Positions 39,353-61,383 of a DNA stretch of 64,000 bases are shown in pieces. Position 1 is the first letter of the stretch. Each line of letters begins with the position of its first letter. The notes under the pieces are model-generated. The model was not told the DNA's origin. It was given only the letters and a program-made list of their open reading frames with translations, and ran no database searches. Source of the stretch: Polyangia bacterium (GTDB lineage: Bacteria; Myxococcota_A; Polyangia; Nannocystales; Nannocystaceae); NCBI GenBank assembly GCA_030424595.1, contig JAUHWG010000011.1, positions 1,130-65,129 on the forward strand, given 5' to 3'. The position numbers were made by a program, and so were the translations under genes.

Positions 39353-39357
39353 GAGGC

Positions 39358-39450
39358 CGTGGCAAAAGTCCCGCGCGCTCGCCAGCCGTCGTCGGCTCTC
39401 TCGGCTCCGCCAAAACTTGCAGTACGGCCTGGTACTGTCACAGCCCCTCC
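39358..39450 (+). repeat. Copy D of the hairpin repeat family (5-prime half), fused to an IS91 fragment
   Basis: gtggcaaaagtcccgcgcgctcgcc...ctctcggctccgccaaaacttgcagtacggcctggtac matches the 5-prime halves of copies A and B, then diverges. Confidence 0.55.
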
Positions 39451-39462
39451 CAGAACGCCCCC

Positions 39463-40035
39463 CCTTCCCGTGCAAGGGCCGCGGGTTCTGCCCGTCGAGC
39501 ATGGGCCGGCGCATGGCCGAGGGAGCGGCGCTCCTGGTCGACCACGTTCTGCCGGCCGTCGGCTACCGCCAGTGGGTGCTCTCCTTCTCGGGGCCCTTGG
39601 CCGTCCGCCTCGGCTACGACCGCGAGCTCCTCGCGGCGGTCTCGGGTTGCCTCGGACGAGCAGTCCTTCGGGACATCCGGCGCGCCGTCAAGCGTGAGAA
39701 CGGACTCGCCTCCGTCGCGGCGCTCCACGGCGGCGTCGTCACGGTCGTCCAGCGCTTCCGCTCTGACCTCGGCCTCTACGTCCACCTCCACCTGCTTGTG
39801 ACCGACGGCGCCTTCGAGGAGTGCACAGGCGAGCTGCCCTTCAGGGCCGCGCCGCCGCCGACCCCCGAGCGGATGACCGCCATCCTCGGCCGCGTCCACG
39901 AGGTGCTCACCGCCGCGGGTCACGACGCAGACGACCTCGACCTCGACCCTGCGCTCGCGGCTTGCGTCCAGCATTCGCTGCGAGGCCCGCACCTCGCCGC
40001 CGTCGCGCCCGACACCGAGCCGCCGCCGCACACGG
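39463..40035 (+). pseudogene. IS91-family (Y2, rolling-circle) transposase fragment F1: the end of the Zn-binding domain through the mid-region
   Basis: FPCKGRGFCPSSMGRRMAEGAALLVDHVLPAVGYRQWVLSF...GGVVTVVQRFRSDLGLYVHLHLLVTDGAF...APPPTPERMTAILGRVHEVL...PPPHTVSA; no start, no catalytic Y2 domain; the ORF 39417..41231 continuation is junk. Confidence 0.75.
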
Positions 40036-40270
40036 TCTCGGCGCAGACGTACTCGGCCTCGCCCCCGGCGACCGGCTCGCAGCTGAAGCCCACGGCGCAG
40101 TCCCCGTCGAGGTCGCAGGGCTCGCCCTTGTCTGCGCCGCCGCTCCCGCCGCTCTCGCCGCTCTCGCCGCTCCCATCGCTCTCGCCGTCTGCGGAGACGT
40201 CTACGACGATCGCCGCGCACGCGAACGAGCCGATGCCGACGAAGAAGAGCGACGGAGCGAGCGCTCGCAT
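39920..40270 (-). pseudogene. Small secreted Cys-rich protein whose 3-prime end is antisense to IS fragment F1 (probably disrupted)
   Basis: Signal MRALAPSLFFVGIGSFACAA then DGESDGSGESG...CDLDGDCAVGFSCEP...; the last 115 nt overlap the transposase fragment. Confidence 0.35.
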
Positions 40271-40416
40271 CAACGACCATGATTTCGCAGATCCGACTCC
40301 GCGTCCAACCATCATGTCGGTGCGCGAGAAAGCGCCGCCCCGAAAGCACCGGCGCGAAGCCTCTCGATGCGCACCCGGTTGGCGTCGACGGACTCTGTCG
40401 GCGCAGGTCAGATGGA

Positions 40417-41238
40417 CTACAAGCACGGCTCGTACCAGCCCATTTGCGCGCGGTAGGCCTCGGCTTCGGCGTCGGCGTCGGGATACGCGTCGTAGCGGGC
40501 GGCCGCCCAGGCGGCCCAGTCGGCGTCGATCTGCGCCAGGGAGGCCCCCAGCACGAGCTCCACGGCCCCCGGGTCCAGCTCGCGAGAAGCCGCGAGGTCC
40601 AAGACGACCTCCCGCCCCAGCTCCTCATCGACGTAGCGGAACCAGGAGGCCCGCAGGATGTAGGCCTGCCCCTGACAGCGCATGTTCAGCTCCTCGTGGT
40701 GCTCGCGCAGCTCCGCCAGCGTCGGCCCCCCCTGCTCCAGCCAGTGGCCGACGACCACATCCTCATCGAAGCCGAAGAGCGGGAACCCGGTCTTGCCGGG
40801 ATCGACCTGCAGCGCGACATACTCCGCCCAGCCCTCCAGGTAGAAGCCAGCGTCGCTCCCCGACTCAGCCAGAGCCGGGGCCACCAGGCTGTCGTAGGCG
40901 ATGGCGTGCACGAGCTCGTGGGCGAACATGGCGCGGTAGCCACCCTCCGCCTCCGAGAAGCGCCACAGGTGGACGGTCCCCTCGTCGTCCACGTAGGGCG
41001 ATGTCCGGCGGTAGCGGCCGTGGAGCTCCACCCGGATCTCGCTGTCCAGCTCGATGTCCGGTGGGTGCAGCGCCGCGATGTCGGCGTGGAGCGCCTCACC
41101 GAGCTCCAGCAGCGCCTGGACATCCTCGTCGGAGCTGCTCACGCTGCTCCCGACGACATGGATGTACCCGCTCTGCGCCTCGAGGCTGCAGGCCGACAGG
41201 GAGAGCAAAGCTAGCGCGAGTGCTCGTGTAGTCCGCAT
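40417..41238 (-). CDS. Putative zinc metalloprotease lipoprotein (HExxH)
   Basis: MRTTRALALALLSLSAC lipobox; AHELVHAIA (HExxH); ATG at 41238 with a GGAGG 8 nt upstream. Confidence 0.65.
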   Translation of the reverse strand: MRTTRALALALLSLSACSLEAQSGYIHVVGSSVSSSDEDVQALLELGEALHADIAALHPPDIELDSEIRVELHGRYRRTSPYVDDEGTVHLWRFSEAEGGYRAMFAHELVHAIAYDSLVAPALAESGSDAGFYLEGWAEYVALQVDPGKTGFPLFGFDEDVVVGHWLEQGGPTLAELREHHEELNMRCQGQAYILRASWFRYVDEELGREVVLDLAASRELDPGAVELVLGASLAQIDADWAAWAAARYDAYPDADAEAEAYRAQMGWYEPCL

Positions 41239-41473
41239 CTTCTGGCCTCCGTTCAACGCGTCAAGGACAGTCGTCGGGCGGCGATTCCCTCGCGGCGCTC
41301 GGCGCTCCTCCTCGGCGGTTGTCTTGAGCTTGGCGGGAGCTGGGTGAGGCATGGTGAGTTCCTGTCTGGAGCGGGGGGGGGCGGGCGCGAGCCGGATCAC
41401 GATGCCTCGTGACGAGGCGGGGTCACATCGTTCGGCCGCCCGCGACCCCATCGGCGATGTCAAGCACACTTAC

Positions 41474-41510
41474 CGTAAAGCACGCTTGTCTTTTTGACAA
41501 GTCTGCTTTA
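41474..41510. promoter_or_regulatory. 37-bp near-perfect palindrome (GTAAAGCAcgcTTGTCtttttGACAAgtcTGCTTTAC) in a local AT-rich patch; candidate operator overlapping a TTGACA -35-like hexamer
   Basis: Seen directly in the sequence; immediately upstream of the membrane-protein/HTH operon. Confidence 0.5.
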
Positions 41511-41521
41511 CATTGGCGACC

Positions 41522-41956
41522 ATGACCGACCGACACGGCACCACGACCGGAACTCCCATGCGCGAGGAGCGAATGAGCGCCGCGGACAAACACCAGCGGA
41601 ACAGCTACCTGAAGGAGTTCATCCCGGCGATCCTGAGCTATGGCATCCTGCTCGCGATCGTGCAGACCACCGTCGACGCGAACACGTCGGGCGCGCACTT
41701 CTGGGTCCTGCTCCCCGTGCTCCCGATGATCGGAGTCGCCGTCGCCCTCTATCGGGCGGTCCAGCGGGCCGACGAGTACGGCCGGATGGTGATGCTCGAA
41801 TGTATGGCGCTCGGCTTCGGCGTCTCGATGATCGTCGCGATGGCCTTCGGCTACCTCGGCGGGATCGGGGTGACACCGACATTCGGCGCGTGGATCGTGT
41901 TCGGCGCCGGCATGATCGCCTGGACCGGCTCGCTCCTGGTCCATGGGATGCGCTGA
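41522..41956 (+). CDS. DUF2178-like small membrane protein (4 TM)
   Basis: Its stop overlaps the HTH gene start (TGATG); this is the common DUF2178 + XRE pairing. Confidence 0.6.
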   Translation: MTDRHGTTTGTPMREERMSAADKHQRNSYLKEFIPAILSYGILLAIVQTTVDANTSGAHFWVLLPVLPMIGVAVALYRAVQRADEYGRMVMLECMALGFGVSMIVAMAFGYLGGIGVTPTFGAWIVFGAGMIAWTGSLLVHGMR

Positions 41957-42183
41957 TGCAGAACCGACTGAAGGAGCTGCGGGCCGTCAACGGATGGAGC
42001 CAGGCGCACTTGGCCGATCTGCTCGGCGTCAGTCGTCAGACCGTCAACGCGCTGGAGAAGGGGCGCTACGACCCCAGCCTGCCCCTCGCGTTCCGGCTGT
42101 CCCGGGTCTTCGACACACCGATCGAAGCGCTCTTCACCCCTGACGACGACGATCTGGGCGCCGCCGCGTCGGCCTCCACTTGA
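41956..42183 (+). CDS. XRE/Cro-type helix-turn-helix transcriptional regulator
   Basis: LRAVNGWSQAHLADLLGVSRQTVNALEKGRYDPSLPLAFRLSRVFDTPIEALF is a canonical HTH_XRE domain. Confidence 0.85.
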   Translation: MQNRLKELRAVNGWSQAHLADLLGVSRQTVNALEKGRYDPSLPLAFRLSRVFDTPIEALFTPDDDDLGAAASAST

Positions 42184-42286
42184 CCGGCGACTTGACCGTC
42201 TGCTCCTGTCGAGGGGTCGGGCGAGAATCCAACGATCGGCTTCGATCCATGGGATCGTCGGCCTTGCGCACGAAGGCGGCAAGGGC

Positions 42287-42471
42287 TCCTCGCGGCGGTC
42301 TCGGGTTGCCTCGGACGAGCAGTCCTTCGGGACATCCGGCGCGCCGTCAAGCGTGAGCACGGACTCGCCTCCGTCGCGGAGCTCCACGGCGGCGTCGTCA
42401 CGGTCGTCCAGCGCTTCCGCTCTGACCTCGGCCTCTACGTCCACCTCCATCTGCTTGTGACCGACGGCGCC
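42287..42471 (+). pseudogene. IS91-family transposase fragment F2 (about 62 codons, mid-region)
   Basis: LLAAVSGCLGRAVLRDIRRAVKREHGLASVAELHGGVVTVVQRFRSDLGLYVHLHLLVTDGAF is near-identical to F1; both ends are abrupt. Confidence 0.7.
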
Positions 42472-42730
42472 TTCAGGTGTCCCGCACGGAACTCAGTCTC
42501 AAACGCTGCATACAGAGTGGTCCGGTACGGAACATCGCGCACGGGGTGCATAGGGTGCATGGGCGCATGGCGCGCGCTGGGTAGCGGTTCCGAGACATAC
42601 CGCATGAGGTCATCTTCGCGGGTGGGAGGGCGGCTGTCTGCGGAAGGTATGGTATGCTGTGGTGTGCGGGAAGCAGTGCCCACCAGTATTCTTACTCGGA
42701 CGTGGTATCCGGCTATTGGTTTGAGTTGCC

Positions 42731-44872
42731 GTGGCGTGGGGGGAGTACCTCGATGGACAGGTACTCGGGCGGGTGGTGTATGGCAGGACTCTGTTGGTGA
42801 GGCAAAGATTGCCCCAGAGCGAAGGTGGTGGGCTGCTTTCACCACCCTCGTGTTTTTTTTTGCTCACAACAAACTGTACGCATTCCCATGGCACGGAGGG
42901 AGGCCCCACAGTATCGAAGGTTTTGGAGATACCAGGAGCGCAGGAGCGCAGGAGCAAGCTCATTCAGAGTATTGTGCGGCAAGAGTACGTCTCATGTCTT
43001 GACGACATTGCTCCTAGGACCGATGAGGAGCGAGCTCTTCTCGCGATTTGCTACGTCTCTTTGCGCGAGCAGAGGGAGGCTGCCAGCCTCATCTTGCAGG
43101 TAGAGCCAGGCTCGAAGTGGCGTGATGTTGCCGAGGCTGTTGTCGGGCTCTCCCGTGCCCAGCCGTCCGGTGCGCCGCTCTCCGCGGAGTCGAGTTCGAT
43201 GCCTGCCTTGAACTGGCTCGTTGCGCTCCTTCACACGCGGTTGTCCCATCCTGATGATGCAGTCCGAGTGATCGAGGACTTGCTTGAGCGAGTCAAAGAT
43301 CCCTCCTGGCGCGCAGAGCTGTTGGTCCTGATGGCTGAGGCGCTCCAGCGGAGGGGGGAGCGTGAGAGAGGGCGTGAGGTACTGAAGAGCGCACTACAAG
43401 AGCACGGGGAGTCGGTGAGAGCTCTCGTGAGCCTATCTCTCGGCGCAATTGAGGCGGGGGACTTCGAGGGGGCAAATGAGTTCGCAGCGCGTGCCGTGGG
43501 ACTTGCGCCGCGTTCCTCCCCGGCAAGGTTCGCCTACTGGAAGGCGCGCATTCGGAGTGACCGCGGGGTTCCGCCTGGGTGGCTTGACTCGCAGGCAAGG
43601 GAGTTCGCGGAGTTTGTAGCCAAGTCCGCCTCGGAGACATTCTTCCTGGCAGAAGAGCTGGAGGCCCGTGGTGAGAGTGAGCTGGCATTTTCTCTCTTTG
43701 AGTTCGTAACTTTACGGTTTGCTCGCTCGAGCTTAGCGAATAGTTCTCACTATCGAGCTGCGCGTATTCTTGTGGATAATCCGGGTCTTCGGAAGGACTC
43801 AGAAACTGCGGAACTCTTGGCCAGCTATCTAGCTCGGTCAGACAGTGACAGTGCTATGTTGCGGACGGATGCGTGCTACTGGCTCTTCGACTTCGTTGCG
43901 CGGGGGGAGGTGCCGCAGGGGTCTCCCTCCCTTGAGCACCTCGCCCAGTGTGGGAGTGCTCCAGAGGCCACTGCAGGACACGTTCTACAGCGCAAGAACG
44001 AGATAGCGGTTGGGCTCGCAGGTTTCTCGGAGCAGCGCGAGCTGGCACGGGAACTCGCGCTAGGGGTGATAGAATCGCTAACGGATGCACAGAAGGAGAT
44101 TCGTCCTAATAATATTCTTGCCCGAGCGCACTTGGCCCTGGCGCTTGTGGCTGCGCAGGGATCGGAGGAGAGAGAACTCTTGGTGCATGCTGAGAAGTCC
44201 CTCAGCCTCGTTTCAACCAGTCGCGAGGTCGATTTTCGAACGATACTAGCGAGGCTGCTTATTCGGCAGGAGAAGGCATCACTGGCTTCTTCGTTCGCTG
44301 AAGCTTGCCTTCAACACCCAGACTGTGTTGAAGCGGCGAGCCTCGCGTATGAACTCGAGTACGGCAGCCTTACGGGGTTCGGCGGATATCTCCGGAAGAA
44401 GCACAAACAGCTTCTTGTGGACCGGCAAAAGATGGTCCTTGGGACCGCCAAGCAAGCAGTGGTCACTATCCCTCTGATGGACCTCGTGGACGTCCATGGT
44501 GAGCCCGGGGATCTTCCGTCGCAGGGGGCCCTGGCCATTGGTTTCTGGAACATTGACTGCGCCCCATGTCGTTGGGAGATGCCCGAGTTCCAATCCATCG
44601 TAGATGCAGCTGAGCGGAAGCAGAACCATACCGTCATATCAGTGAATGTCGCAGATAGTCCGGAGCGTGTCCGCAAGTGGATGGACGAGGAGGGCTACAA
44701 TTTTCCTGTCTATTTTCTAAAAGGAGAGTCGCCTGTTCGAGAGTTTCCCACAGTTTGGTTTGTCAATCGTCAGCGTAACCTTGTCTTCGAAACTACGGGG
44801 CTGCAGGAGAAGACTTGGTTTGAGATTGAGAGTTCCTGGCGCATGGACTTTATCGAGAAGGGGCACGAGTAG
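42731..44872 (+). CDS. Large protein with N-terminal TPR-like alpha-helical repeat region and C-terminal TlpA/ResA-like thioredoxin domain (WNIDCAPC)
   Basis: About 55% GC versus about 70% background; the thioredoxin fold has a CAPC active site followed by the typical TlpA C-terminus; the true start is probably downstream of 42731 (around 42900), as there is no clear ATG. Confidence 0.6.
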   Translation: MAWGEYLDGQVLGRVVYGRTLLVRQRLPQSEGGGLLSPPSCFFLLTTNCTHSHGTEGGPTVSKVLEIPGAQERRSKLIQSIVRQEYVSCLDDIAPRTDEERALLAICYVSLREQREAASLILQVEPGSKWRDVAEAVVGLSRAQPSGAPLSAESSSMPALNWLVALLHTRLSHPDDAVRVIEDLLERVKDPSWRAELLVLMAEALQRRGERERGREVLKSALQEHGESVRALVSLSLGAIEAGDFEGANEFAARAVGLAPRSSPARFAYWKARIRSDRGVPPGWLDSQAREFAEFVAKSASETFFLAEELEARGESELAFSLFEFVTLRFARSSLANSSHYRAARILVDNPGLRKDSETAELLASYLARSDSDSAMLRTDACYWLFDFVARGEVPQGSPSLEHLAQCGSAPEATAGHVLQRKNEIAVGLAGFSEQRELARELALGVIESLTDAQKEIRPNNILARAHLALALVAAQGSEERELLVHAEKSLSLVSTSREVDFRTILARLLIRQEKASLASSFAEACLQHPDCVEAASLAYELEYGSLTGFGGYLRKKHKQLLVDRQKMVLGTAKQAVVTIPLMDLVDVHGEPGDLPSQGALAIGFWNIDCAPCRWEMPEFQSIVDAAERKQNHTVISVNVADSPERVRKWMDEEGYNFPVYFLKGESPVREFPTVWFVNRQRNLVFETTGLQEKTWFEIESSWRMDFIEKGHE

Positions 44873-45173
44873 TCGCACCACGAGGGACGGTGCTACGGCT
44901 ACGCGATGGTCGCTCTGGAGGCTGAGGCTGGAAGAACGCCTAGGAAGCGATTCCCTGAGGTGATGTGCCGACCTGTCGACCTCAGAAGCTGAGGCTCACC
45001 GGAGGGCGCTTAGGACGTTCTATCTGGGAATTAGGGCCAGCGACCGAGTAGCGGGAGCTGTCTCGATCCCGGCTCTTTGCGGGCCGTCCCCCAGAGGATC
45101 GAGGAGCGGCACCACGACCGGTGGCCATGAGACGCAACGGCGATCCAGACGCCCAGTCGGCGACTTCACGAAG

Positions 45174-45395
45174 ATGAAGGACCACAAGGTGCCGACCATG
45201 ACACCGCGCCGCATCGGCTGGGCACACCTCCTCGCGCGGGTCTTCGCCGTCGACGTCACGGTCTGCTCGAAGTGCGGCGGGCGGATGAAGATCCTCGAGG
45301 TCGTCACCGATCCCGGCACCATCGCCGAGCGACCGCACGGCGCCCGCGCGCCGCCACGACCCTGTCCTCCTGGGCAGTTGAGGATGTTCGCGTAA
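45174..45395 (+). pseudogene. IS91-family transposase C-terminal fragment F5
   Basis: RIGWAHLLARVFAVDVTVCSKCGGRMKILEVVTDPGTIAE matches the conserved IS91 TnpA C-terminus (RVF.iD...C..CGG.m.i); preceded by an in-frame stop. Confidence 0.7.
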
Positions 45396-45659
45396 GCGCG
45401 TGCCGAGGGGTCGCGCTCGGCTTCGCGCGTCCAGCCGTCGACGTCGCGTCGCGAGGCCCGGCAAGGGCGGTGAACTGGCCTACGAACGCATCTCGCGGGA
45501 CTGTTGAAGCGGTTGGCGCACCTCGTGGAGCGTCCATGCGCCGTCAGGGCTTTAGCCTCCACGAGCCTCCGAGTACCCGGCGCCTTGCCCGAATTTCCGG
45601 CTTGAACTTCTTAACCGCCGCCACGGAGCGGCGGCGTGTCATGATCACCGCTTCGAAGG

Positions 45660-46742
45660 ATGTCACCCCGACCCCGCATCCGCTGGCCGCTCGGCCCGCT
45701 CCTCGCGCTGACCCTGGGGATCGGCTGCGAGCGCGCTGGGCCGACGATCGAGGCCGCGTCACCCGGCGAGGCGCAGGCCGTCGAAGCGGCGTCGCCCGGC
45801 GTCGCCGAGCCCGCCGCGCCTCCAATCGAAATCACCCTCGAGATCACGCAGACGGCGGTCGTCGTCACCCACGTCGAGGCGCTCGACGAACCCGGCGACC
45901 CCCCGCGCGAGCGTGGGCCAGCGCGCTTCGAAATCGCGACGATCCTCGCGGGCGAGCGCAGCGACGAGCGTGAGCCATTCCGCAGCGAGCTCGCGCGCCT
46001 CCACGCCCGGGCCACCGGGCGCGCGGACCCGGCCCCGGAGGACGAGGACGCCGCCGAGGGCGAGGACCAGCGCCTCCTCGTCCGCGTCACCGACGACGTG
46101 GGCACCCGCAAGGTCCAGGAGGTCCTCGATCGGGCGCTCCGCGCCGGCCCGTGGGAGCTCACGCTCGAGGTCCAGGGCCCGGGCGCGCCGCGCCTCGTCC
46201 CCCTCCTCCCCTACGCCTTCTGCGCCTGCCCGATGCCCGAGGGGACGACCTGGTGCGCCGCGCCGAGCCTGCGGATCGACGAAGCCGGCGTGACCCTCCT
46301 GGCCACCCCCGACCTCCGGCCGCCGCCGGGCTGCCACAAGACGATCCCGAGGGTGGGTCAGGAGCGGCCGCCCTTCGCCGCGGCGATCGACTGGCGCAAT
46401 CGCGTGATCGCGGGACCCGAAGGCGGCTGCCCGAGCGCGACCATCGACCGTCGCCGCGTCGACCGCGACACGCTCCGCGAGCGCCTCGTCGCCCTCCACG
46501 ACGCCGCCCCCGGCTGCGGCTGGGCCGAGGTGGCGGTCGACGGCCAGATCCCCTGGGCGCGGGTCGCCGAGGTCCTCGCCGCGCTCCACGAGACCTTCGG
46601 CGTGCTCCGGATCTCCTTCCGCGACCCGACGCCGACGCCGGACCGCGAGTGCGCGCGGGCGCTGACGATCGACGCTCTGCGCCCCGCGAGCGCGACCGGG
46701 TCGCCGCTCGCCCGCCGCCCCGGCTGCCGCGAGGAGCGATGA
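45660..46742 (+). CDS. Hypothetical lipoprotein
   Basis: WPLGPLLALTLGIGC lipobox; 360 aa with several Cys pairs. Confidence 0.5.
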   Translation: MSPRPRIRWPLGPLLALTLGIGCERAGPTIEAASPGEAQAVEAASPGVAEPAAPPIEITLEITQTAVVVTHVEALDEPGDPPRERGPARFEIATILAGERSDEREPFRSELARLHARATGRADPAPEDEDAAEGEDQRLLVRVTDDVGTRKVQEVLDRALRAGPWELTLEVQGPGAPRLVPLLPYAFCACPMPEGTTWCAAPSLRIDEAGVTLLATPDLRPPPGCHKTIPRVGQERPPFAAAIDWRNRVIAGPEGGCPSATIDRRRVDRDTLRERLVALHDAAPGCGWAEVAVDGQIPWARVAEVLAALHETFGVLRISFRDPTPTPDRECARALTIDALRPASATGSPLARRPGCREER

Positions 46743-46756
46743 CGCCGCTCGCCGCC

Positions 46757-46950
46757 AGTGCGTCAGCCGGCCGGTGAGTTGTCCGCGGCTCCGAGATGGG
46801 ACGCGACCGCCCCGCTGTTCGCGAGTCCCTGTGATGAGATCACGCCACTTTACTGAGCAGTCCTCTCCGGCCGCCGCATTGCAGCGCCGGGAGCGATGCC
46901 GGTGTGCGCCAGCTCGGGGGTCTACGTCCCCCGCGACACCCACCGCTGGG
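46757..46950 (+). mobile_element. IS91-family element left end (about 140 bp of 5-prime UTR/terminus plus the first about 17 tnpA codons), copy 1
   Basis: About 95% identical to 53278..53475; encodes M(P/L)VCASSGVYVPRDTHR; here it is followed by an inverted transposase mid-fragment rather than the rest of tnpA. Confidence 0.65.
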
Positions 46951-46989
46951 GCGCCGACGACCACGGGATTGAGCTTGATGATCAGCGCG

Positions 46990-47375
46990 TCGACCTCCTG
47001 CATGCCGTAGGCGGAGACCGTGTGCGGCGGCGGCTCGGGGTCGGGCGCGGCCGGGGCGAAGCGCGGGCCTCGCAGCGAGTGCTGGACACACGCCGCGAGC
47101 GCGGGGGCGAGGTCGAGGTCGTCGTCCGCGTCCTGGCCGGCGGCGGCGAGGACCTCGTGCACGCGGGCGAGGATGGCCGTCATCCGCGCGGGGGTCGGCG
47201 GCGGCGCGGCCCGGAAGGGCAGCTCGTCACCACGCTCCTCGAAAGCGCCGTCCGTCACGAGCAGATGGAGGTGGACGTAGAGCCCGAGGTCGCTGCGGAA
47301 GCACTGGACGACCGTAACGACGCCGCCGTGGAGCGACGCGACCGAGGCGAGCAGCCCGGCGCGTGCAGTAGACTC
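46990..47375 (-). pseudogene. IS91-family transposase fragment F3 (mid-region, inverted relative to the adjacent left end)
   Basis: ...AGLLASVASLHGGVVTVVQCFRSDLGLYVHLHLLVTDGAFEERGDELPFRAAPPPTPARMTAILARVHEVLAAAG...PPPHTVSA; ends at the same PPPHTVSA breakpoint as F1. Confidence 0.7.
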
Positions 47376-47380
47376 GGCCC

Positions 47381-48894: not shown

Positions 48895-48909
48895 ACGGCT
48901 TGGATGGAG

Positions 48910-49983: not shown

Positions 49984-50110
49984 GGCGGTTGCGTGTGGGG
50001 GTTAGGGCTGTGTCTTGCAATGCGCGTGGGTCGAGCCGTGCAGGCGCCCGCTGGCACGGGCTCGACGGCGTCCGAGCGGTGCGAACGACGGTCGAGCTCT
50101 CGGCCGAGCC

Positions 50111-50881
50111 TCACGGAGGAGGGGCCGCGTCCGTCCTCGTCAGCGAGGCCGTCACCGCGCCCTCAGGGAGGCCATCGCAGACCTCGTCCGCGGTGAGCCC
50201 CCAGGTCGTGACCTCGTGTCCGCGCGGGCGCTGGACGATCCACTCGAGCGTCGAGAGCTCGTCGCAGCTGGCGATCCAGTGCGAGGCGACGTCGTACACG
50301 GCGTAGCCGACCTCGGCGAGGACGGCCACGCCGCCCGTGGTCAACGACGCGGAGGCGCCGTCGACAGTGAGTGTGATCTCGTGGAGCTGGTGCGGGTGGC
50401 ACAGGTCATCGCCGCAGTCCGAAGAGGCGATTACGTCTATCCGCTCGAAGCCGAGCTGACCGGAGCTCGCCGCGATCGGGAAGTCCTCATGAAGGGCGTA
50501 GACGAGGTGCTCGGGGTCGTCCTCGAGGTCCCAGAAGGCGAACCCGCGCAGCTCACAGACCGGGCCGGAGCTCTCGGTCTCGAAGGAGATCCGCTCGAAG
50601 GAGAAGTGAAAGCACTCGGGGACCTGGGGCTCCCAACCCGGCGGCGCCGTGACGGCGAGCGACCACTCGGGGGCGGCGTCGCAGGTCTCCCCGCACGGGC
50701 ACTCGACGAGCGTCCACTCGCCATCTCCGCCGCCTGCGAGGCGCCCGTCGAATTCGACCAACGTCACGCAATCGCTGCTGTCGCCGGTGTCGGTGTCGGT
50801 CGCTGTGCTCGACGTCGCCGAATTGCAGCCGACGAGGAGGCCCAAGGCGACACCGACGCTTCGATGCGCTGATCTCGGCAT
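50111..50881 (-). CDS. Hypothetical lipoprotein
   Basis: VGVALGLLVGC lipobox; Cys-rich. Confidence 0.55.
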   Translation of the reverse strand: MPRSAHRSVGVALGLLVGCNSATSSTATDTDTGDSSDCVTLVEFDGRLAGGGDGEWTLVECPCGETCDAAPEWSLAVTAPPGWEPQVPECFHFSFERISFETESSGPVCELRGFAFWDLEDDPEHLVYALHEDFPIAASSGQLGFERIDVIASSDCGDDLCHPHQLHEITLTVDGASASLTTGGVAVLAEVGYAVYDVASHWIASCDELSTLEWIVQRPRGHEVTTWGLTADEVCDGLPEGAVTASLTRTDAAPPP

Positions 50882-50893
50882 AACGTCCTTGTA

Positions 50894-51277
50894 TCACCCC
50901 AGCTCGAGATCCGGAGACGCGGCCGCGAGTTCGACGCAGTCCGTGCTGTCGACGATCGCCGCGCAGGCGGGCGGCCCCGAGGTGTCGGTCGTCGTCGCGT
51001 CGGTCGTCGTCGAGGTCGAGGTCGATGACGCGCCGCTCGCCGAAGACGAGTCGCTCGATGCAGACGTCGAGCCGGCGGTCACGGTCGCGGCCGAAGTCGA
51101 GGACATCCCGGACGTGCTCGCGGTCGACGCGGTCGACGCGGTCGACGCGGTCGACGCGGTCGACGAGGTCGACGAGGTCGTCGAGGTCGTCGAGGCGCTC
51201 CCCTCCGTCGCTACGCCGTCATCACCGGCGCAGCCGACGAGGAGCCCGAGGGCGAGGACACGCGGGACTTTCGCCAC
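50894..51277 (-). CDS. Ser/Thr-rich lipoprotein (paralogous signal peptide to the next gene)
   Basis: MAKVPRVLALGLLVGC; (STA)n low complexity encoded by tandem gcggtcgac repeats. Confidence 0.5.
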   Translation of the reverse strand: MAKVPRVLALGLLVGCAGDDGVATEGSASTTSTTSSTSSTASTASTASTASTASTSGMSSTSAATVTAGSTSASSDSSSASGASSTSTSTTTDATTTDTSGPPACAAIVDSTDCVELAAASPDLELG

Positions 51278-51283
51278 AGCCTG

Positions 51284-52285
51284 CTAGTCCTCGGCCGTCT
51301 CGGTCGTCGGCGCGGCGCCGGGCTCGAACTGGCGGGCCCAGGTGCGGAAGCGGACGATCGGACCGTCGCCGTCGCAGAGCACCGGGCGCGGGACGACGAC
51401 CTTGTTCTGCCAGATCGGCACGTCGCGCCGGAACTCGCGCATCGCGGTCCAGCCGACGAAGCGGGCGACGAGGCTGCGGACGCCGGGCGGCAGGCGGCGC
51501 GAGACGATCACCGCCTGGCGGTGGACGATCGAGTGCTCGTCGATCGGCATCGGGCAGCCGAGGACGATGAAGGGCGCCTCGCCGCGGCCGCGGGTGACGG
51601 CGAAGCCCGCCCCGTAGGCGTCGATGTCGAGGGAGACCTCGCGCTCGATCCCGAAGCGGCGCCAGAGGACGCGGCTGGTCATCGAGAAGCGCGGGCCGTC
51701 GGTGCGGAACTCGAGCGCGGGCGGCTCGGGGAAGTTGTGGAGGGCGAAGAAGTGGCCGCGATCGACCCCGTTCTCGACGAGCTCGCGCCAGCGCGTGCGG
51801 ATCGTCGTCTCGTAGATCCGCGGCTTCGTCCACTCCTTCGAGCTGAACTCCGGGAGCTCGGGGATCGTAAACCACGGCGCGCGGCCGTCGGCGTCGTGCC
51901 AGATCAGGATCTGGCCGTTGACCTCGCGGACCCTCCAGGCGTCGAGGCGCGCGCGCTTGGGGATCTTCTTCGCGTAGGGGATCCGCGTGCAGGCGCCGGC
52001 GCCGTCGAACTCCCAGCCGTGGAAGGGGCAGCGCAGGTCGTTGCCGACGACGCTGCCGCCGACGCCGAGGTGCGCGCCGAGGTGCGGACAGTAGGCGTCG
52101 ACGACCCGGGCGTCGCCGTCCTCACCGCGGAAGAGCACGAGCTCGCGGCCGAGGCAGCGGATCGCGCGGACCTGGCCGCGACGGAGCTCGTGGCTCCACC
52201 CGATCTGGATCCAGCTGCTCGGGTAGGGGTTGAAGTCGTAGTTCTTCTCGTCGTCGCGGGTGCGGATCTGGATCGGTGTCGACAT
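51284..52285 (-). CDS. Rieske [2Fe-2S] non-heme iron oxygenase (KshA/Neverland-like single-component alpha subunit)
   Basis: CPHLGAHL...CPFHGWEF Rieske motif; mononuclear Fe DxxHxxxxH (DRGHFFALH). Confidence 0.8.
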   Translation of the reverse strand: MSTPIQIRTRDDEKNYDFNPYPSSWIQIGWSHELRRGQVRAIRCLGRELVLFRGEDGDARVVDAYCPHLGAHLGVGGSVVGNDLRCPFHGWEFDGAGACTRIPYAKKIPKRARLDAWRVREVNGQILIWHDADGRAPWFTIPELPEFSSKEWTKPRIYETTIRTRWRELVENGVDRGHFFALHNFPEPPALEFRTDGPRFSMTSRVLWRRFGIEREVSLDIDAYGAGFAVTRGRGEAPFIVLGCPMPIDEHSIVHRQAVIVSRRLPPGVRSLVARFVGWTAMREFRRDVPIWQNKVVVPRPVLCDGDGPIVRFRTWARQFEPGAAPTTETAED

Positions 52286-52674
52286 GGGCCGCGCGAGGAT
52301 AGCGCGGCGCGCCTGTCCTCGCTGGCCCCCGCGGTCGAGTCAGTTGGACATTGTCGATCTCGCCGTCGCCCGTGCTCGACTTGATGAACTGCTGGCCGCC
52401 GTCGACGAGCTCGAGGTTGTGGAGGATGACGTCGTCGGCGTTGGCCCACAGGTGGACGAGGAGCCTCCGAGTACCCGGCGCCTTGCCCAAAACGGTGTCC
52501 TCGAAGTCCATGCCGACGCCCGGCTCGACCTCCAGGCTGGCGACAAAGGGCGCCTCGGTGCTGCGATGAAGGACGTACACCTTTCCCAGCGCGGTGACCA
52601 ACGGGGCGAGGTCCGTGGGTCCTTCCAGCGCGTCTCGTCGGTCAACCTAGGTCGACCAGCCGGCGTCAGCCTCG

Positions 52675-52944
52675 TCAGCTGCGATCGTCATCGCCATCGT
52701 CATCGGAATCGTCGGCGGGCTCATCGTCGACGGCGAGCGCCTTCTGTGCCGCTTTGCGCTGGCGCGCGCGATCGATGCGGAGGACGAGGATGACGACGAG
52801 GGCGAGGAGCATAAGCTGGATAGCCCGCTCTCCAGCCGAGATCACCGCGCCATCGCGATCCACTGGCGGGGAGAAGAGGAGCGCGGCGAAGCCGAGGGCG
52901 AAGCCGGCGAAGATCAGCGCCCGCAGCCACGGACGCCCGAGCAT
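52675..52944 (-). CDS. Small 2-TM membrane protein with acidic C-terminal tail
   Basis: Internal ATG of ORF 52675..53235; the upstream part of that ORF is antisense to IS fragment F4a. Confidence 0.35.
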   Translation of the reverse strand: MLGRPWLRALIFAGFALGFAALLFSPPVDRDGAVISAGERAIQLMLLALVVILVLRIDRARQRKAAQKALAVDDEPADDSDDDGDDDRS

Positions 52945-53106
52945 CGCCGACCACCAGCGCACCCTGTAGTCGCGCTCGTCTTCGGCGTCCCACACCGGCG
53001 CCAGCGTAGCAACTCCGACGCGCTCGCGTCCGACGCGCTCGCGCTCTGGCGTGCCCGCGCCGGGACGCGCCTCTCCGCTCTGGCCGGTCGATCGAAGATC
53101 TGTCGG

Positions 53107-53270
53107 AGTTGCGCGCCGCCGCCGACCCCCGAGCGCATGACCGCCATCCTCGCTCGAGTTCACGACGCCATCCTCGCCCAGGACCCGGACGCCGAGCTCG
53201 ACCTCGACCCCGCGCTCGCGACCTGTGTCCAGCAATCCCTCCGAGGCCCGCCCCGGGCGGCCACGCGCCC
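53107..53270 (+). pseudogene. IS91-family transposase fragment F4a (mid-region APPPTPERMTAILARVHDAIL...SLRGP)
   Basis: Truncated at SLRGP where the left end of another IS copy begins (nested insertion). Confidence 0.65.
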
Positions 53271-53277
53271 CTGCGCT

Positions 53278-53870
53278 CGCGGCCAGTGCGTCAGCCGGCC
53301 GGTGAGTCGTCCGCGGCTCCGAGATGGGACGCGACCGCCCCGCTGCTCGCGAGTCCCTGTGATGAGATCACGCCACTTTCTGAGCAGTCCTCTCCGGCCG
53401 CGGCGTTGCAGCGCCGGGAGCGATGCTGGTGTGCGCCAGCTCGGGGGTCTACGTCCCCCGCGACACCCACCGCTGCGACGCCGCCGTGCTCGTCCAGCAT
53501 CACCTCGCCGGCTTTCTCGAGCGCGTAGAGGAGGGCAGTCATGCCCCGCTGCCTGACTTCGTCCGGGACGAGCTGCGGGGCTTCGCCGTGTGCGGCGACT
53601 TCTCGCAGGGCTTTGTCCGGACGGAATGCCGCCGCTGCGGCGATGAGCTGCGTGTGCCCTTCCCGTGCAAGGGCCGCGGGTTCTGCCCGTCGTGCATGGG
53701 CCGGCGCATGGCCGAGGGAGCGGCGCTCCTGGTCGACCACGTTCTGCCGGCCGTCGGCTACCGCCAGTGGGTGCTCTCCTTCTCGGGGCCCTTGGCCGTC
53801 CGCCTCGGCTACGACCGCGAGCTCCTCGCGGCGGTCTCGGGTTGCCTCGGACGAGCTCGGCAAACAGGTT
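53278..53870 (+). mobile_element. IS91-family element left end plus tnpA N-terminal about 150 codons (Zn-binding domain), truncated at 53870 (F4b)
   Basis: MLVCASSGVYVPRDTHR...HHLAGFLERVEEGSHAPLPDFVRDELRGFAVCGDFSQGFVRTECRRCGDELRVPFPCKGRGFCPSCMGRRMAEGAALLVDHVLPAVGYRQWVLSF... then an abrupt junction (GCLGRA|RQTG*). Confidence 0.75.
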
Positions 53871-53898
53871 GACGTTTGTGAGCTTTGGGGCGTAGTTT
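53869..53898 (+). promoter_or_regulatory. Sigma70-like promoter candidate (TTGACG - 18 nt - TAGTTT) at the IS-fragment junction, upstream of the Cys-rich lipoprotein gene
   Basis: Seen directly in the sequence; a locally AT-rich 50-nt patch in 70% GC DNA. Confidence 0.35.
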
Positions 53899-53908
53899 TG
53901 TCTTTATT

Positions 53909-54859
53909 GTGAGCAAAGGCATACTCTTCGGTGCGCGCCACTGTCCGCTCATCGCGCTCGCGCTCGCGCTCGGATGCGTCGTCGTGACGCCGATGAACAC
54001 CTCCACAGGCGCGTCCGCCGGGGGCAGCGCCGGCGACAGCGACACCTCCGGTGACACCTCCGGCCTCTCCGCCTCGAGCACCTCCGCGGGCACCGCGACC
54101 GCGGGCCCAGGGACGAGCTCATCCACCTCATCCACCTCCGGCTCGGCCAGCTCCAGCCCCAGCACCACCGAGGACGACCCCGGCTGCCTCTTCATCCCCT
54201 GCTTCGATCTTCCGCCGGAGCCCATGAGCTGCGACGTCTACCTCCAGGACTGCCCCGAGGGGATGAAGTGCACCCACAGCCACCTCGACGACGACTCCTT
54301 CTGCAGCGATCTCGCCCCCCGACCCAAGGAGCTCGGCGAGCCCTGTGAGATCTTCGCCGGACCCCTGGAGGGGCTCGATGATTGCGGTGTCGGCGAGCTG
54401 TGCTGGTACTTCGACGAGGAGCAGGGGCTCGGCGAGTGCATCTCCTTCTGCCAAGGATCGATGGAGGACGCGACCTGCCCCGAGCCGATGACCCACTGCA
54501 ACATCGGCTGCCAGAGCTGCGTGGGGATCTGCCTCGACGACTGCGATCCGCTCCTCCCCGACGATTGCCCCGGCGATCGGCTCTGCATCGAGAGCGGCGG
54601 CGACTTCGACTGTGTCCACGCCGCGGAGCCGCTCGGCGGCTACGGCGACCCGTGCGAGTACATCAACGTCTGCGAGTACGGCCTCGCCTGCGTCTCCGGC
54701 GAGAACCTCCCGGAGTGCGAGTCCGGCGGCTGCTGCACCCCCTTTTGTGATCTCGGCGCGCCCGAGTGCCCAGACCAGGAGCTCGGGGTCGCCTGCGTCC
54801 CCTACTTCGACGCGCCGAAGCCCGGCGCCGAGCACATCGGCCTCTGCGTCCTCCCCTAG
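53909..54859 (+). CDS. Cys-rich secreted lipoprotein (Ser/Thr linker plus a C-terminal domain of about 30 Cys)
   Basis: GTG start gives MSKGILFGARHCPLIALALALGC; paralog of 55678..56607 (shared DCPEGxKC..., ...GCCTPxCD... motifs). Confidence 0.65.
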   Translation: MSKGILFGARHCPLIALALALGCVVVTPMNTSTGASAGGSAGDSDTSGDTSGLSASSTSAGTATAGPGTSSSTSSTSGSASSSPSTTEDDPGCLFIPCFDLPPEPMSCDVYLQDCPEGMKCTHSHLDDDSFCSDLAPRPKELGEPCEIFAGPLEGLDDCGVGELCWYFDEEQGLGECISFCQGSMEDATCPEPMTHCNIGCQSCVGICLDDCDPLLPDDCPGDRLCIESGGDFDCVHAAEPLGGYGDPCEYINVCEYGLACVSGENLPECESGGCCTPFCDLGAPECPDQELGVACVPYFDAPKPGAEHIGLCVLP

Positions 54860-55579
<720 letters not shown>

Positions 55580-55589
55580 CCTAGCAGCC

Positions 55590-55665
55590 CGCGGCGAAAG
55601 TCCCGTGTGCTCTCGCGCCGCAATCGTCGGCCCGATTGGCTGCGACGAAACTCGGGGCCAGGTTA
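55590..55665 (-). repeat. Copy E of the hairpin repeat family (partial, inverted orientation)
   Basis: gaaagtcccgtgtgctctcgcgccgcaatcgtcggccc is the reverse complement of the copy A 3-prime core. Confidence 0.5.
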
Positions 55666-55677
55666 CCCTCCGTGGTG

Positions 55678-56607
55678 ATGGCACGACGAGCCTCCCTGCC
55701 TCTCTGCGCTCAGGCGCTCCTCCTCGTCGGCTGTCTTACCCCTGCGGGAATCCCCGGGGCCTCGGCGACGACCTCCGGGGGGATGACGGGCTCGACCACG
55801 AGCTCGACCGCGAACTCGACCACGACGACGGCAGCCTCGTCGGCGAGCACTCGCGGGATGACGACCACAACCGCGGCAGAATCGACGATGACCGGCGCAG
55901 AGAGCTCCACCGGCTGCGGATTTCTCGGCTGCGACGACGTCGGCGAGCTGCCCTGCGACCAGTGGGCCCAGGACTGTCCGGAGGGCCAGAAATGTGTGCC
56001 TTACGCCGACGGTATGGGCTCGGTCTGGAACGCGCTCAAGTGCACGCCCGTCGACCCGCGCCCGGACGCCGTCGGGGACCCCTGCACGGTGACCGAGAGC
56101 CCGCTCAGCGGGGTCGACTCATGCGATGTCGGGGCGCTGTGCTACGGCGTCGACTCGCAGACCATGACGGGCTATTGCATCGCCCTCTGCTCCGGCTCGC
56201 TGCGCGAGCCTAGCTGCCCCGAGGGTTCTTCATGCACCATCCTTGGCCGCGGGATCGTGACCTTCTGCCTGCTCGATTGCTCTCCGCTCGAGCAGGACTG
56301 CCCTGACGGCTATCTCTGCACTGCGTCCTACGGCGGCGACCACTTCGGATGTAGCCTCGACATCTCTGGAGAAGCGGGCTCCTACGGCGATCCTTGCGAC
56401 TACCGCGGCCAATGCGATCCTGGCCTCGTCTGTGGGAGCGGCGACGAGGTCCCCGGGTGTATGTCCAACGGGTGCTGCACGCCCCTATGCGATATTTCGC
56501 AGCCGAACACCTGCCCCGGAGAGAAGCAGAGCTGCATCCCCTGGTTCGACGAGGGAGACGCGCCCCCGGGGCAGGACAACGTCGGGGTCTGCGCGACGGG
56601 GGCCTGA
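55678..56607 (+). CDS. Cys-rich secreted lipoprotein, paralog of 53909..54859
   Basis: MARRASLPLCAQALLLVGC lipobox; Thr-rich linker; same Cys spacing as the paralog. Confidence 0.65.
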   Translation: MARRASLPLCAQALLLVGCLTPAGIPGASATTSGGMTGSTTSSTANSTTTTAASSASTRGMTTTTAAESTMTGAESSTGCGFLGCDDVGELPCDQWAQDCPEGQKCVPYADGMGSVWNALKCTPVDPRPDAVGDPCTVTESPLSGVDSCDVGALCYGVDSQTMTGYCIALCSGSLREPSCPEGSSCTILGRGIVTFCLLDCSPLEQDCPDGYLCTASYGGDHFGCSLDISGEAGSYGDPCDYRGQCDPGLVCGSGDEVPGCMSNGCCTPLCDISQPNTCPGEKQSCIPWFDEGDAPPGQDNVGVCATGA

Positions 56608-56892
56608 TCGACGGGCAGTCGACGGGCAGTCGACGGGCACTTCGACAGCTCGGGCGCTGCGGTCCGCATTTCCAGCCGCGCGAGGACAGAACCGCCTATT
56701 CGCTGCCGAGATCGACATAGGGCAGCGCGTCGCCATCTCTCCTGGCTGGTCGCCGCGATTCTCCATATCCTCGTAGCCGAGCGCGCCTTGGCTGCCGCCA
56801 AATCCCCAGCACTTGACGCCGTGATCGTCGAGGAGCGCGCAGGCGTAGTTCGCCCCGGGCACCGCCTTGATCGCCGTCCGCCCGGCGCCGAG

Positions 56893-57068
56893 ATCGATCG
56901 GCGGCAGGGCGTCGCTCTCGCTTGCCCTCGGCGGCCCTCTCGGCTCCGCCAAGACTTGCAGTACGGCCCGGTACCGCGGCGTTTCATCCAAGCCGAGAGG
57001 ACCAACGATTGCTGCGCGAGAGCCCACGGGACGCTCACCACGGCCTCCGAGGAGCCCGGGGCTCCTCG
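56893..57068 (+). repeat. Copy B of the hairpin repeat family (near full length)
   Basis: cctctcggctccgccaagacttgcagtacggcccggtaccgcggcgtttcatccaagccgagaggaccaacgattgctgcgcgagagcccacgggacgctcaccacggcctcc. Confidence 0.6.
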
Positions 57069-57142
57069 GCGGCGAGTGGCGCCGCGCGGTCGAACGCCTC
57101 CCCGGTGCTCCGCGCTGGGCTCAATCGATGTATCTATAGGGG

Positions 57143-59830: not shown

Positions 59831-61330
<1,500 letters not shown>

Positions 61331-61382: not shown

Positions 61383-61383
61383 T

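Follow-up and report, generated by a model that had tools for sequence, protein, structure and literature searches.

ISCR elements are blamed for the assembly of resistance regions, although no experiment has yet demonstrated that they transpose (PMC6218425, PMC13393415). In ISCR1, variable genes are positioned downstream of oriIS (PMC6218425); in the IS91 family, termination fails in 1-14% of events, mobilising DNA beyond terIS (PMC13181058). Here we describe IS91/ISCR-like remnants in a 64-kb stretch of DNA from a Nannocystaceae-like myxobacterium (hereafter the window, meaning the whole stretch analysed). The locus is a real yet fairly ordinary transposon junkyard, of a type known from antibiotic-resistance regions. 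It holds eight coding remnants and one 31-nt piece, nine in all, every one within 39,456-53,857; a six-frame profile search found zero significant extra IS91/ISCR-like pieces in the rest of the window, and there is no complete copy in its 64 kb. A sequence-only reading of the region had listed six fragments (F1, F2, F3, F4a, F4b and F5), none of them complete, and this is borne out. All six lie within ~5-25 nt of where that reading placed them and are homologous to IS91/ISCR-type transposases by Pfam, NCBIfam, tblastn and HMM, with E-values of ~1e-15 to 1e-113 (tblastn, profile-HMM); the NCBIfam models ISCR_clade_Ia and transpos_IS91 match five of the six. Its count of 'at least 6' stands, but its list was incomplete, as F7 and a 31-nt right-end piece are also present.

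In the parental IS, which is ~1.77 kb long, the gene for a 465-aa transposase is flanked by a left end of ~150 nt (terIS side) and a right end of ~223 nt (oriIS-type). The transposase carries a Zn-binding domain, an HUH motif, one conserved CRY tyrosine and a C-terminal CxxC. Full-length relatives have 460-470 aa, and the nearest named elements are ISVsa3/ISCR2, at 33-37% identity (33% over the full length, E 4e-71, in an alignment that matches up both the HUH and the CRY motif). The Pfam domain Zn_Tnp_IS91 (PF14319, cut-off 26.3) is found in F4b at 56.7 bits (E 2.4e-15) and in P0002, the 465-aa relative in whose residues we give fragment extents, at 54.2 bits. Y2_Tnp (PF04986, cut-off 20.9) scores 81-92 bits in full-length relatives; in the window, F1, F2 and F3 match only profile positions 1-32 of 183, at 20.9-21.1 bits. 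The HUH/Y2 core had been described as missing everywhere, and this is only partly so. The HUH motif VHLHLLVTDG is intact in F1, F2 and F3 and aligns with VHFHMLFLDG of ISVsa3 (HLH versus HFH), but the catalytic CRY tyrosine (Y298 of P0002, aligned to the ISVsa3 CRY) is retained by no fragment: most of aa 277-399 (277-304 and 347-397) is absent from all of them, and Y298 falls within the lost aa 277-304. Present-day transposition from the window copies is impossible: the tyrosine is gone from all of them, and not one keeps both ends.

The two ends of the element, each defined from several contexts, are unrelated in sequence; the left terminus reads CGCTCGCGGCCAGTGCG and the right terminus ...GAACTTCTTAACCGC. 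F6, F4b and the outside locus L087 share the left terminus CGCTCGC(C/G)GCCAGTGCG, and in another outside locus, L002, the left terminus CGCTCTCGGC comes directly after the stop codon of a cargo gene. The right end finishes ...CTTCTTAACCGC, and in 25 copies on other contigs the flanks diverge directly past ...CTTAA[C/G/A]CGC. A GTTC/CTTG-type tetranucleotide (GAAC/CAAG on the tnpA strand) abutting the right terminus is not consistent among these 25 copies, in which the four bases after the terminus differ; since the IS itself ends in a variable NCGC, a different target tetranucleotide is conceivable. Short palindromes occur near the left end (GTGAT-GAG-ATCAC) and 55-100 nt from the right end (CTCGTGGAG...CTCCACGAG), and the folding energy of the IS ends is no better than that of shuffled controls (z -0.8 to +0.3).

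The remnants lie on the plus strand except for F3. F1 (39462-40042) covers tnpA aa 77-273, from the last part of the Zn domain through the HUH motif to the variable linker; its frame is open and it has no IS ends. It is 99% identical in amino acids to P0015 (tblastn, E 1e-114; HMM E 9e-113), and its nucleotide identity is 95.7% to L001 and 97.3% to L116. F2 (42285-42475) covers aa 133-196, HUH motif included (HMM E 7e-34), and is 98.4% identical to F1 over 190 nt. F5 (45193-45618) holds aa ~398-465 with the CxxC zinc motif, its own stop codon and the 223-nt right end, and terminates in the conserved oriIS-type motif given above (HMM E 4e-32); it is 89.6% identical to L001, a contig that stops at the identical base. 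F6 (46746-46956) is an IS left end (the 150-nt upstream region, terIS side) with codons 1-20; 42 nt of unrelated filler separate it from the inverted F3 (46999-47351, minus strand). F3 covers aa 160-276, keeps the HUH motif and belongs to a separate subfamily (HMM E 1.5e-60; 87% nucleotide identity to F1 and 92.8% to L002/L003). F7 (48762-48866), which the sequence-only reading missed, is a degenerate older remnant of aa ~305-340 (RVRVHFKAPSRRGAALADMS; tblastn E 8e-8, HMM E 9e-7), 90-92% identical to copies in L115, L147 and L157. Also missed was F8 (52461-52491), a possible remnant made up of 31 nt from the non-coding part of the right end; it matches 45563-45593 of F5 at 30 of 31 nt and L001 6288-6318 at 93.5%. 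F4a (53112-53271) is an older tnpA remnant of aa 208-262 (HMM E 6e-18), 79-82% identical to F1 and F3 and 92-93% to L115 and L112. Finally, F4b (53274-53856) consists of an IS left end and aa 1-145 with the Zn-binding domain complete (HMM E 8e-92); its ORF is an intact 149 aa (53423-53872), ending five codons past the break, and it is 99.5% identical to F1 across their 200-nt overlap.

Because the fragments cover overlapping residues, at least six copies or duplicates are required. F1, F2 and F4b share 98.4-99.5% nucleotide identity with one another; F3 is 87-89% identical to these three, yet 93% identical to the outside copy L002; and F4a and F7 are 79-82% identical to the other fragments and 90-93% to outside copies such as L115. 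Every fragment has its own nearest outside relative, with pairwise identities of 79-99.5%. The nine remnants represent three or more subfamilies or lineages and a minimum of six copies (or duplicates). These lineages, the overlapping residues, the nested F4a/F4b junction and the inverted F6/F3 pair all agree with the earlier statement that this is not a single insertion. The multi-copy nature of the element raises the question of whether the joins are collapsed or chimeric products of assembly, and short-read contigs of the same material do break at the element (L087, L090 and L091; 1.2-2.9 kb). We consider such an artefact extremely unlikely: subfamilies at 79-93% identity could not collapse together, six junctions between fragments and unique DNA recur at 99.5-100% in the independently assembled L087, L090 and L091, and equivalent multi-fragment clusters are seen in long contigs of many other genomes. 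Specifically, the junction of F2 with a low-GC segment is also present in the independent Logan contig L091 (window 42445-45085, 100%), and the distal junction of F3 in the Logan contig L090 (window 47190-50061, 100%).

Five of the nine remnants (F1, F2, F3, F4a and F7) have neither IS end, so that each needs two illegitimate breaks; they are therefore not primary products of rolling-circle initiation or termination, which places generic deletion behind most of the breakpoints. All breakpoints examined join IS sequence to non-IS sequence, and no reciprocal junctions were found that would permit reconstruction of any inversion or deletion. Recurring breakpoints had been proposed on the ground that F1 and F3 end at the same residue, but F3 extends 12 nt (YGM) further, and ~1.7 pairs this close are expected by chance from ~16 breakpoints in a 1.7-kb element. 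No breakpoint hot spot is significant; the 60 genuine 3' truncations found elsewhere have end points scattered over aa 28-439. The duplicated left end, in contrast, is real: 46746-46959 and 53274-53486, which include the first 20 codons, are 95% identical over 214 nt. One of these left ends was said to be joined to an inverted mid-fragment; the F6/F3 pair exists as described, but the 42 nt of filler rule out a direct join. The interruption of F4a at the left end of another copy is confirmed, in that F4a is cut 2 nt ahead of the F4b left terminus.

One arrangement looks like one-ended or circle-mediated capture, and it is the sole such arrangement in the locus: a right end (45618), a 360-aa hypothetical gene (S3, 45660-46742, plus strand, 76.6% GC) and a left end (46746). 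This candidate captured gene starts 41 nt after the F5 right terminus and ends 3 nt before the F6 left terminus. No other segment has true IS termini on both sides; six more lie between remnants only, and their import by the IS is conjecture. F5 is likewise the only fragment that could be a direct premature-termination product, as it keeps the oriIS-type end. A homologue of the gene in L088/L089 is 80% identical and has no adjoining IS. L087, a contig assembled from a different metagenome, matches window 45608-46837 at 99.5%, each of its two ends falling within an IS end; an identity this high could mean that L087 stems from the same organism and is not independent evidence. A one-ended or aberrant rolling-circle origin had been suggested for the whole set. 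F5 and the gene between the two ends fit this idea, but the five fragments with neither end do not. Across the family, full-length copies account for only 36 of 201 (163 loci). L002 contains 1.83 units of a tandem [FMN oxidoreductase - IS] array, in which the left terminus comes right after the stop codon of the cargo gene. Clusters of several fragments occur often in this IS family: 35 of the 163 loci hold at least two fragments, with out-of-order and opposite-strand pieces among them, and in L119 another older fragment abuts a left end.

Every IS remnant lies in a strain-specific island of ~18.6 kb (39359-57947) situated between two convergent chromosomal genes. The close relative L084 is colinear with the flanks (28308-37470 at 95%, 37658-39358 at 90% and 57976-64000 at 88-91%) and has the empty site, with only ~26 nt separating the two convergent stop codons. 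The island segments are mosaic in GC, at 58.8-76.6% against ~70% in the flanks. No tRNA is present in the 64-kb window, no integrase or other transposase was found among the island proteins, and no repeat was found at the island edges; the hallmarks of an integrase-type genomic island are absent. It is possible, though on balance we think it unlikely, that the site was a passive landing pad, in which an island built by other means received whole ISs repeatedly and random deletion eroded them with no cargo moved. This would account for the many fragments that have lost both ends and abut unrelated DNA and for breakpoints without site specificity; in addition, the locus varies even without ISs (L084 has two genes here that are absent from L085/L086), and MITE copies likewise accumulate in it. 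However, the island has no other mobility gene and no tRNA to explain its arrival, a right and a left terminus exactly enclose the gene at 45660-46742, and the tandem gene-IS array of L002 is a capture-type arrangement in the same IS family.

The MITE-like element is ~158 bp long with 27-nt terminal inverted repeats, and full copies lie at 19561-19717, 56900-57048 (plus strand, inside the island) and 11421-11574. The copy at 56900-57048 is the repeat behind the end, at 57068, of the range drawn by the sequence-only reading. At its left edge the island begins with the left half of such an element (39359-39435, plus strand), which aligns to ~1-111 of the full copies; 26 nt of filler separate this half from F1. 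A complementary right half (55576-55651, minus strand) is broken at the same MITE position within ~3 nt. That the two halves are complementary and oppositely oriented may point to a ~16-kb inversion and could be taken, together with copies on both strands within 14 kb and the good substrates that F1, F2 and F4b provide at 98-99.5% identity, to mean that homologous recombination between dispersed IS copies, through inversions and deletions, was the main cause of fragmentation. We regard this as very unlikely. Recombination between copies, which had also been put forward earlier, would yield hybrid but whole copies rather than truncations against unrelated DNA, and every breakpoint examined joins IS to non-homologous, non-IS DNA. 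Moreover, the putative inversion breaks within a MITE and not between two repeats, and the same half-MITE with its 26 nt recurs in L136, with an IS left end 190 nt downstream of it.

Taken together, the region is probably a decayed pile-up of IS91/ISCR-type elements in a strain-variable island, produced by serial arrival, some carriage of flanking DNA, and then deletions and inversion. Six or more copies, belonging to three or more subfamilies, would have reached the site over time, F4a and F7 being presumably the oldest and F1, F2 and F4b the youngest. Some arrivals probably carried or trapped neighbouring DNA, by one-ended transposition or by integration of a circle of IS plus flank, which could have given both the right end - gene - left end arrangement and the nested junction, where a left end lies within an older copy. 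Every copy would then have been shortened by illegitimate deletions and one or more inversions. The sequences themselves show what the fragments are, how many copies and lineages they come from, where the IS termini lie, the nested and gene-flanking junctions, the empty site in a relative and the frequency of such clusters in the family; the import of intervening genes by the IS, the order of events and the rolling-circle chemistry are inferred. A broader proposal, which we think improbable, is that a Nannocystaceae ISCR-like lineage prefers to integrate in or beside its own copies and, through successive rounds of one-ended or circle-mediated transposition, assembles foreign genes into mosaic islands in environmental myxobacteria. 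If this were true, ISCR resistance arrays would have a natural equivalent outside the clinic, several successive captures would be preserved in the window, and tandem [gene-IS] arrays of the L002 type would be an active intermediate.

These findings have practical implications. For annotation, the nine ORF fragments are pseudogene remnants in a strain-variable island, not independent 'zinc-binding domain proteins'. The family appears to be a large, diverse and partly intact group of environmental ISCR relatives, with 36 full-length copies and a tandem gene-IS array, and one cleanly bounded captured-gene candidate together with filled and empty versions of the island would offer natural material on gene capture and decay into clusters.

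Compared with ISCR elements (ISVsa3, ISCR2-type), this IS shares the Zn-binding N-terminus, the HUH motif and the single conserved CRY tyrosine, and it lacks inverted-repeat ends. Its right end lies ~225 nt past the stop, where CTTCTTAACCGC (CTTCCTATCCGC in L156) resembles the CTTCCTATACG that ISVsa3 carries ~230 nt downstream of its stop codon. As in ISCR-type gene-capture arrays, unrelated genes are bounded by IS copies, with truncated copies amid them, and a gene with the same orientation follows directly after the oriIS-type end. The relationship to ISCR clade Ia is nevertheless distant: NF052416, though the best-scoring model, gives 238-255 bits against a cut-off of 925. In contrast to the ISCR-bounded mosaics of resistance plasmids, ICEs and integrons, this IS resides in an environmental myxobacterium, its cargo consists of hypothetical, LRR, TPR-thioredoxin and Rieske genes rather than resistance genes, and there is no integron 3'-CS. 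With IS91, IS801 and IS1294 the IS shares Zn_Tnp_IS91 and Y2_Tnp domains in its full-length relatives and functionally distinct ends, and the one-ended transposition of flanking DNA described for the IS91 family (PMC13181058) offers a mechanism for a gene between two ends. It differs from IS91 in falling below the cut-off of 125 for the NCBIfam equivalog NF033538 (P0002 84.2 and P0006 95.5 bits), in having, as we read the alignment, one tyrosine conserved with ISCR2 and not a Y2 pair, and in having neither GTTC/CTTG by the right end nor orf121. Many partial copies of mixed ages and nested junctions in a small dispensable region are also typical of the IS graveyards and nested clusters of bacterial plasticity zones; unlike the usual graveyard, this one was built from a rolling-circle-type family with gene-capturing relatives and has one gene precisely bounded by IS termini.

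The cluster is made up of decayed remnants of IS91-family elements from a distant, ISCR-like branch, lying within a strain-specific island. The sequence-only reading had assigned six intervals to fragments of an IS91-like tnpA, and this assignment holds: once translated, these intervals give open reading frames that match Pfam and NCBIfam IS91-family models. Pfam Zn_Tnp_IS91 matches fragment F4b with 56.7 bits, fragments F1, F2 and F3 match the N-terminus of Y2_Tnp, and for five of the six intervals the best NCBIfam model is ISCR_clade_Ia. A search with a composite F4b + F1 query returned 542 relatives; the transposases P0001 and P0002 show 89% identity, and P0015 matches F1 at 99% identity. 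The full-length relatives (460–470 aa) contain both Pfam domains above threshold but fall below the IS91 equivalog cut-off (84 versus 125 bits) and the ISCR clade Ia cut-off (238 versus 925 bits). Among named sequences they come closest to ISVsa3 (ISCR2-type), with 33% identity across the whole protein in BLASTP (E 4e-71) and 37% in tblastn, and to plasmid-borne ‘IS91 family’ transposases of Delftia and Pseudomonas (32% identity); sequence search found no solved structure of a relative. Window GC is ~70%, and the window's genes and their closest relatives point to an origin in the Nannocystaceae (myxobacteria).

To map the remnants we used tblastn with P0002 (465 aa, the source of residue numbers here) and P0015, blastn against the near-complete copies on contigs L001 and L002, and a six-frame profile-HMM scan, which together gave eight coding remnants and one non-coding piece. 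On the plus strand lie F1 (39462–40042, aa 77–273), F2 (42285–42475, aa 133–196), F5 (45193–45618, aa ~398–465 plus the right end), F6 (46746–46956, left end plus aa 1–20), F7 (48762–48866, aa ~305–340, newly found and degenerate), F8 (52461–52491, 31 nt from the right-end region, also newly found), F4a (53112–53271, aa 208–262) and F4b (53274–53856, left end plus aa 1–145); F3 (46999–47351, aa 160–276) is on the minus strand. The HMM scan of the window detected no further significant remnants outside 39456–53857. The fragments have uninterrupted reading frames; rearrangement, not decay through point mutations, therefore broke them up. F4b forms an intact 149-aa ORF (53423–53872, plus strand); of the transposase this encodes the zinc-binding DNA-binding domain alone, and the native upstream region still precedes it. 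The HUH/Y2 core had been described as missing everywhere, but F1, F2 and F3 keep the HUH motif VHLHLLVTDG, aligned to VHFHMLFLDG in ISVsa3; lost from every fragment are the conserved CRY tyrosine (Y298), aa 277–304 and aa 347–397.

The fragments overlap, and thus at least six copies or duplicates are needed. Nucleotide identity is 99.5% between F1 and F4b (200 nt), 98.4% between F1 and F2 and 95% between F6 and F4b; it is 87% for F1/F3, 89% for F2/F3, 79% for F1/F4a and 82% for F3/F4a. F3 is nearer to copies outside the window (92.8% versus L002), and the copies nearest to F4a and F7 are those of L115, L112 and L147 (90–93%). These pairwise and outside identities indicate at least three subfamilies, differing in age. 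The proposal of repeated events instead of a single insertion is therefore upheld as to the number of events, although the mechanism put forward for them is unproven.

Misassembly had been named as an explanation that could overturn the pattern. It is unlikely: L090 (window 47190–50061) and L091 (42445–45085), assembled independently from run ERR3428543, which seems to include the window's genome, are 100% matches, L087, from another metagenome, matches at 99.5%, and together the three reproduce six junctions. Exact-match look-ups with five other window proteins gave no matches, which leaves seven junctions without independent support.

An unoccupied version of the island site is found in L084, a contig from the same metagenome as L001 that we reached via a MlaC-family neighbour gene (protein 99% identical). 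L084 is colinear with the window on the left (28308–37470 at 95%, 37658–39358 at 90%) and on the right (57976–64000 at 88–91%), but between the stop codons of two convergent genes, MlaC and DUF805, it has ~26 nt versus 18.6 kb (39359–57947) in the window; a more distant relative (L085/L086) is different again at this site. The island contains no tRNA, and no integrase, other transposase or defence genes are found among its proteins. Its segments range from 58.8 to 76.6% GC, and the IS remnants make up 2.6 kb. Also present are a TPR-thioredoxin gene, an LRR gene, a Rieske/KshA-type oxygenase, several hypothetical genes, two paralogous Cys-rich lipoproteins, and truncated SBF/ACR3-type and RCC1-like genes. 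Two low-GC segments, 42476–45192 and 48867–50090 (58.8% and 60.6% versus ~70%), carry genes for a 713-aa protein with TPR and thioredoxin-like (AhpC/TSA) parts and for an LRR protein of 357 aa whose repeat unit is 81 nt, and both are probably foreign in origin. The transporter gene (54875–55579, plus strand) lacks its N-terminus, with profile positions 59–175 of 191 left, and is flanked by the lipoprotein genes (53885–54859 and 55636–56607; ~39% identical, without family assignment). Island cargo genes do not recur beside the IS in 83 other loci (genome contigs and L001–L003), the later-fetched metagenome loci having been compared with the island at the nucleotide level only. Short in-frame tandem repeats (12-nt and 9-nt units) lie in or beside coding regions at 38522–38599, 38733–38819 and 51121–51198; among them are TGTS repeats located where the MlaC-family ORF is extended at its N-terminus, relatives of this ORF being just ~207 aa long.

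A MITE-like element of ~158 bp with imperfect 27-nt terminal inverted repeats (GTGGCAAGAGTCCCGCGCGCTCTCGCC) is present in full at 11421–11574, 19561–19717 and 56900–57048, the last overlapping the 5′ part of the RCC1-repeat fragment (56485–57027, minus strand), and as a degenerate copy at 28162–28274. A 36-nt end-like piece (51252–51287) extends over the start codon of the lipoprotein gene 50894–51277 and the beginning of its signal peptide. L084 has a copy (8546–8712) between its MlaC and S9-peptidase genes where the window has none, so the element was apparently mobile recently. Two halves, at 39359–39435 (plus) and 55576–55651 (minus), are complementary and oppositely oriented, and their break points in the element agree to about 3 nt; they could mark a ~16.2-kb inversion (39436–55651) spanning the whole IS cluster. 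Because in L136 (2572–2663) an IS left end is preceded, 190 nt away, by the same left half with the same 26-nt filler, we keep this inversion only as a possibility.

Several features argue against a purely rolling-circle history. F1, F2, F3, F4a and F7 have neither IS end, and each thus needs two illegitimate breaks. Homologous recombination cannot be the source of these truncations, as they abut unrelated DNA, which is beyond what it can make. Only S3, the segment between the F5 right terminus and the F6 left terminus, has true termini on both sides. Many ordinary deletions therefore belong to the history, along with at least the F6/F3 inversion; F6 does lie beside the inverted F3, but 42 nt of unrelated sequence separate them, and the two are not directly joined as had been read. 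We also considered a 14,195-bp unit bounded by F1 and F4b and repeated 1.014 times through rolling-circle overrun; this is without support, since the start of F1 lies within the gene instead of at an IS end.

Recurring breakpoints had been suggested by F1 and F3 appearing to end at the same residue. F3 extends 12 nt beyond F1, and with roughly 16 breakpoints chance alone would give ~1.7 pairs this close. We surveyed 201 copies at 163 loci fetched from genomes and metagenomes; 36 copies are full-length, and genuine truncations number 104 at the 5′ side and 60 at the 3′ side, the latter spread over aa 28–439. A mild cluster just past the HUH motif (F2, L111, L116, L117 and L162, within ~35 nt) has bases and downstream DNA that differ among its members, and may partly reflect a boundary between conserved and variable sequence together with locus sampling. 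A breakpoint seemingly shared by F7 and L119 vanished when F7 was aligned to its own subfamily, where it reaches 48866. There is no convincing hot spot. Two or more pieces occur at 35 of the 163 loci, and in some of these the pieces are not in order or lie in opposite orientations; L119 is a second instance of a left end abutted by an older fragment; multi-fragment clusters are not unusual for this IS family.

The gene held by S3 (45660–46742) starts 41 nt past the F5 right terminus and ends 3 nt ahead of the F6 left terminus. L087 is 99.5% identical over 45608–46837, and both its ends fall inside IS ends; an 80%-identical homologue (L088/L089) has ordinary neighbours and no IS. In L002 (1–5744; JGI Ga0376080_0016676), an FMN oxidoreductase gene and a full-length IS form a tandem array of 1.83 units of 3139 bp; the units differ by three mismatches, the stop codon of the cargo gene adjoins the left terminus of the IS, and at the right terminus the 9-nt GTTAACCGC is duplicated. 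For IS91 and IS1294, termination at terIS fails in 1–14% of events, which co-mobilises the DNA beyond, and known intermediates include circles with an oriIS-terIS junction (PMC13181058); the variable genes of ISCR1 sit downstream of oriIS (PMC6218425). An IS-gene-IS arrangement is precisely what integration of an IS-plus-flank circle, at a resident copy or inside one, would produce, and we infer this as its source.

The earlier observation was thus essentially right, with corrections. Of the by-products, the most useful are the element ends as now defined, the pair of filled and empty islands, the one cleanly bounded, putatively captured gene and the L002 tandem array. The intact element is ~1.77 kb, from CGCTCGCGGCC... 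to ...CTTCTTAACCGC. Its left terminus, CGCTCGC[G/C]GCCAGTGCG..., lies ~150 nt before the ATG and is common to F4b, F6 and L087, with differing upstream contexts; in L002, CGCTCTCGGC immediately follows the stop codon of the neighbouring gene. L119 and L136 suggest that this terminus is uncertain by about 10–20 nt. The right terminus is sharp: in 25 copies on many contigs similarity reaches ...CTTAA[C/G/A]CGC and the flanks then diverge at once (45618 in the window, where contig L001 also ends). No GAAC/CAAG-type target abuts the right end in these 25 copies. The two ends are not inverted repeats of each other, and candidate hairpins fold no better than shuffled sequence. Directly past the IS end, a right-terminal piece is duplicated in L140 (36-nt repeat) and TAAGCGC is present twice in L097; these may be solo ends from repeated same-site insertion. 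Within the left end, ~70 nt ahead of the tnpA start, there is a small conserved palindrome, GTGAT-NNN-ATCAC (53340–53356, 46812–46828, L001 ~4663), which could be an operator. In the corresponding region ISCR1, ISCR2 and ISCR8 have LexA boxes (PMC13393415); by contrast, the palindrome does not resemble a known LexA box. In ISVsa3, CTTCCTATACG lies about 230 nt past the stop codon and resembles CTTCTTAACCGC of the window family and CTTCCTATCCGC of L156.
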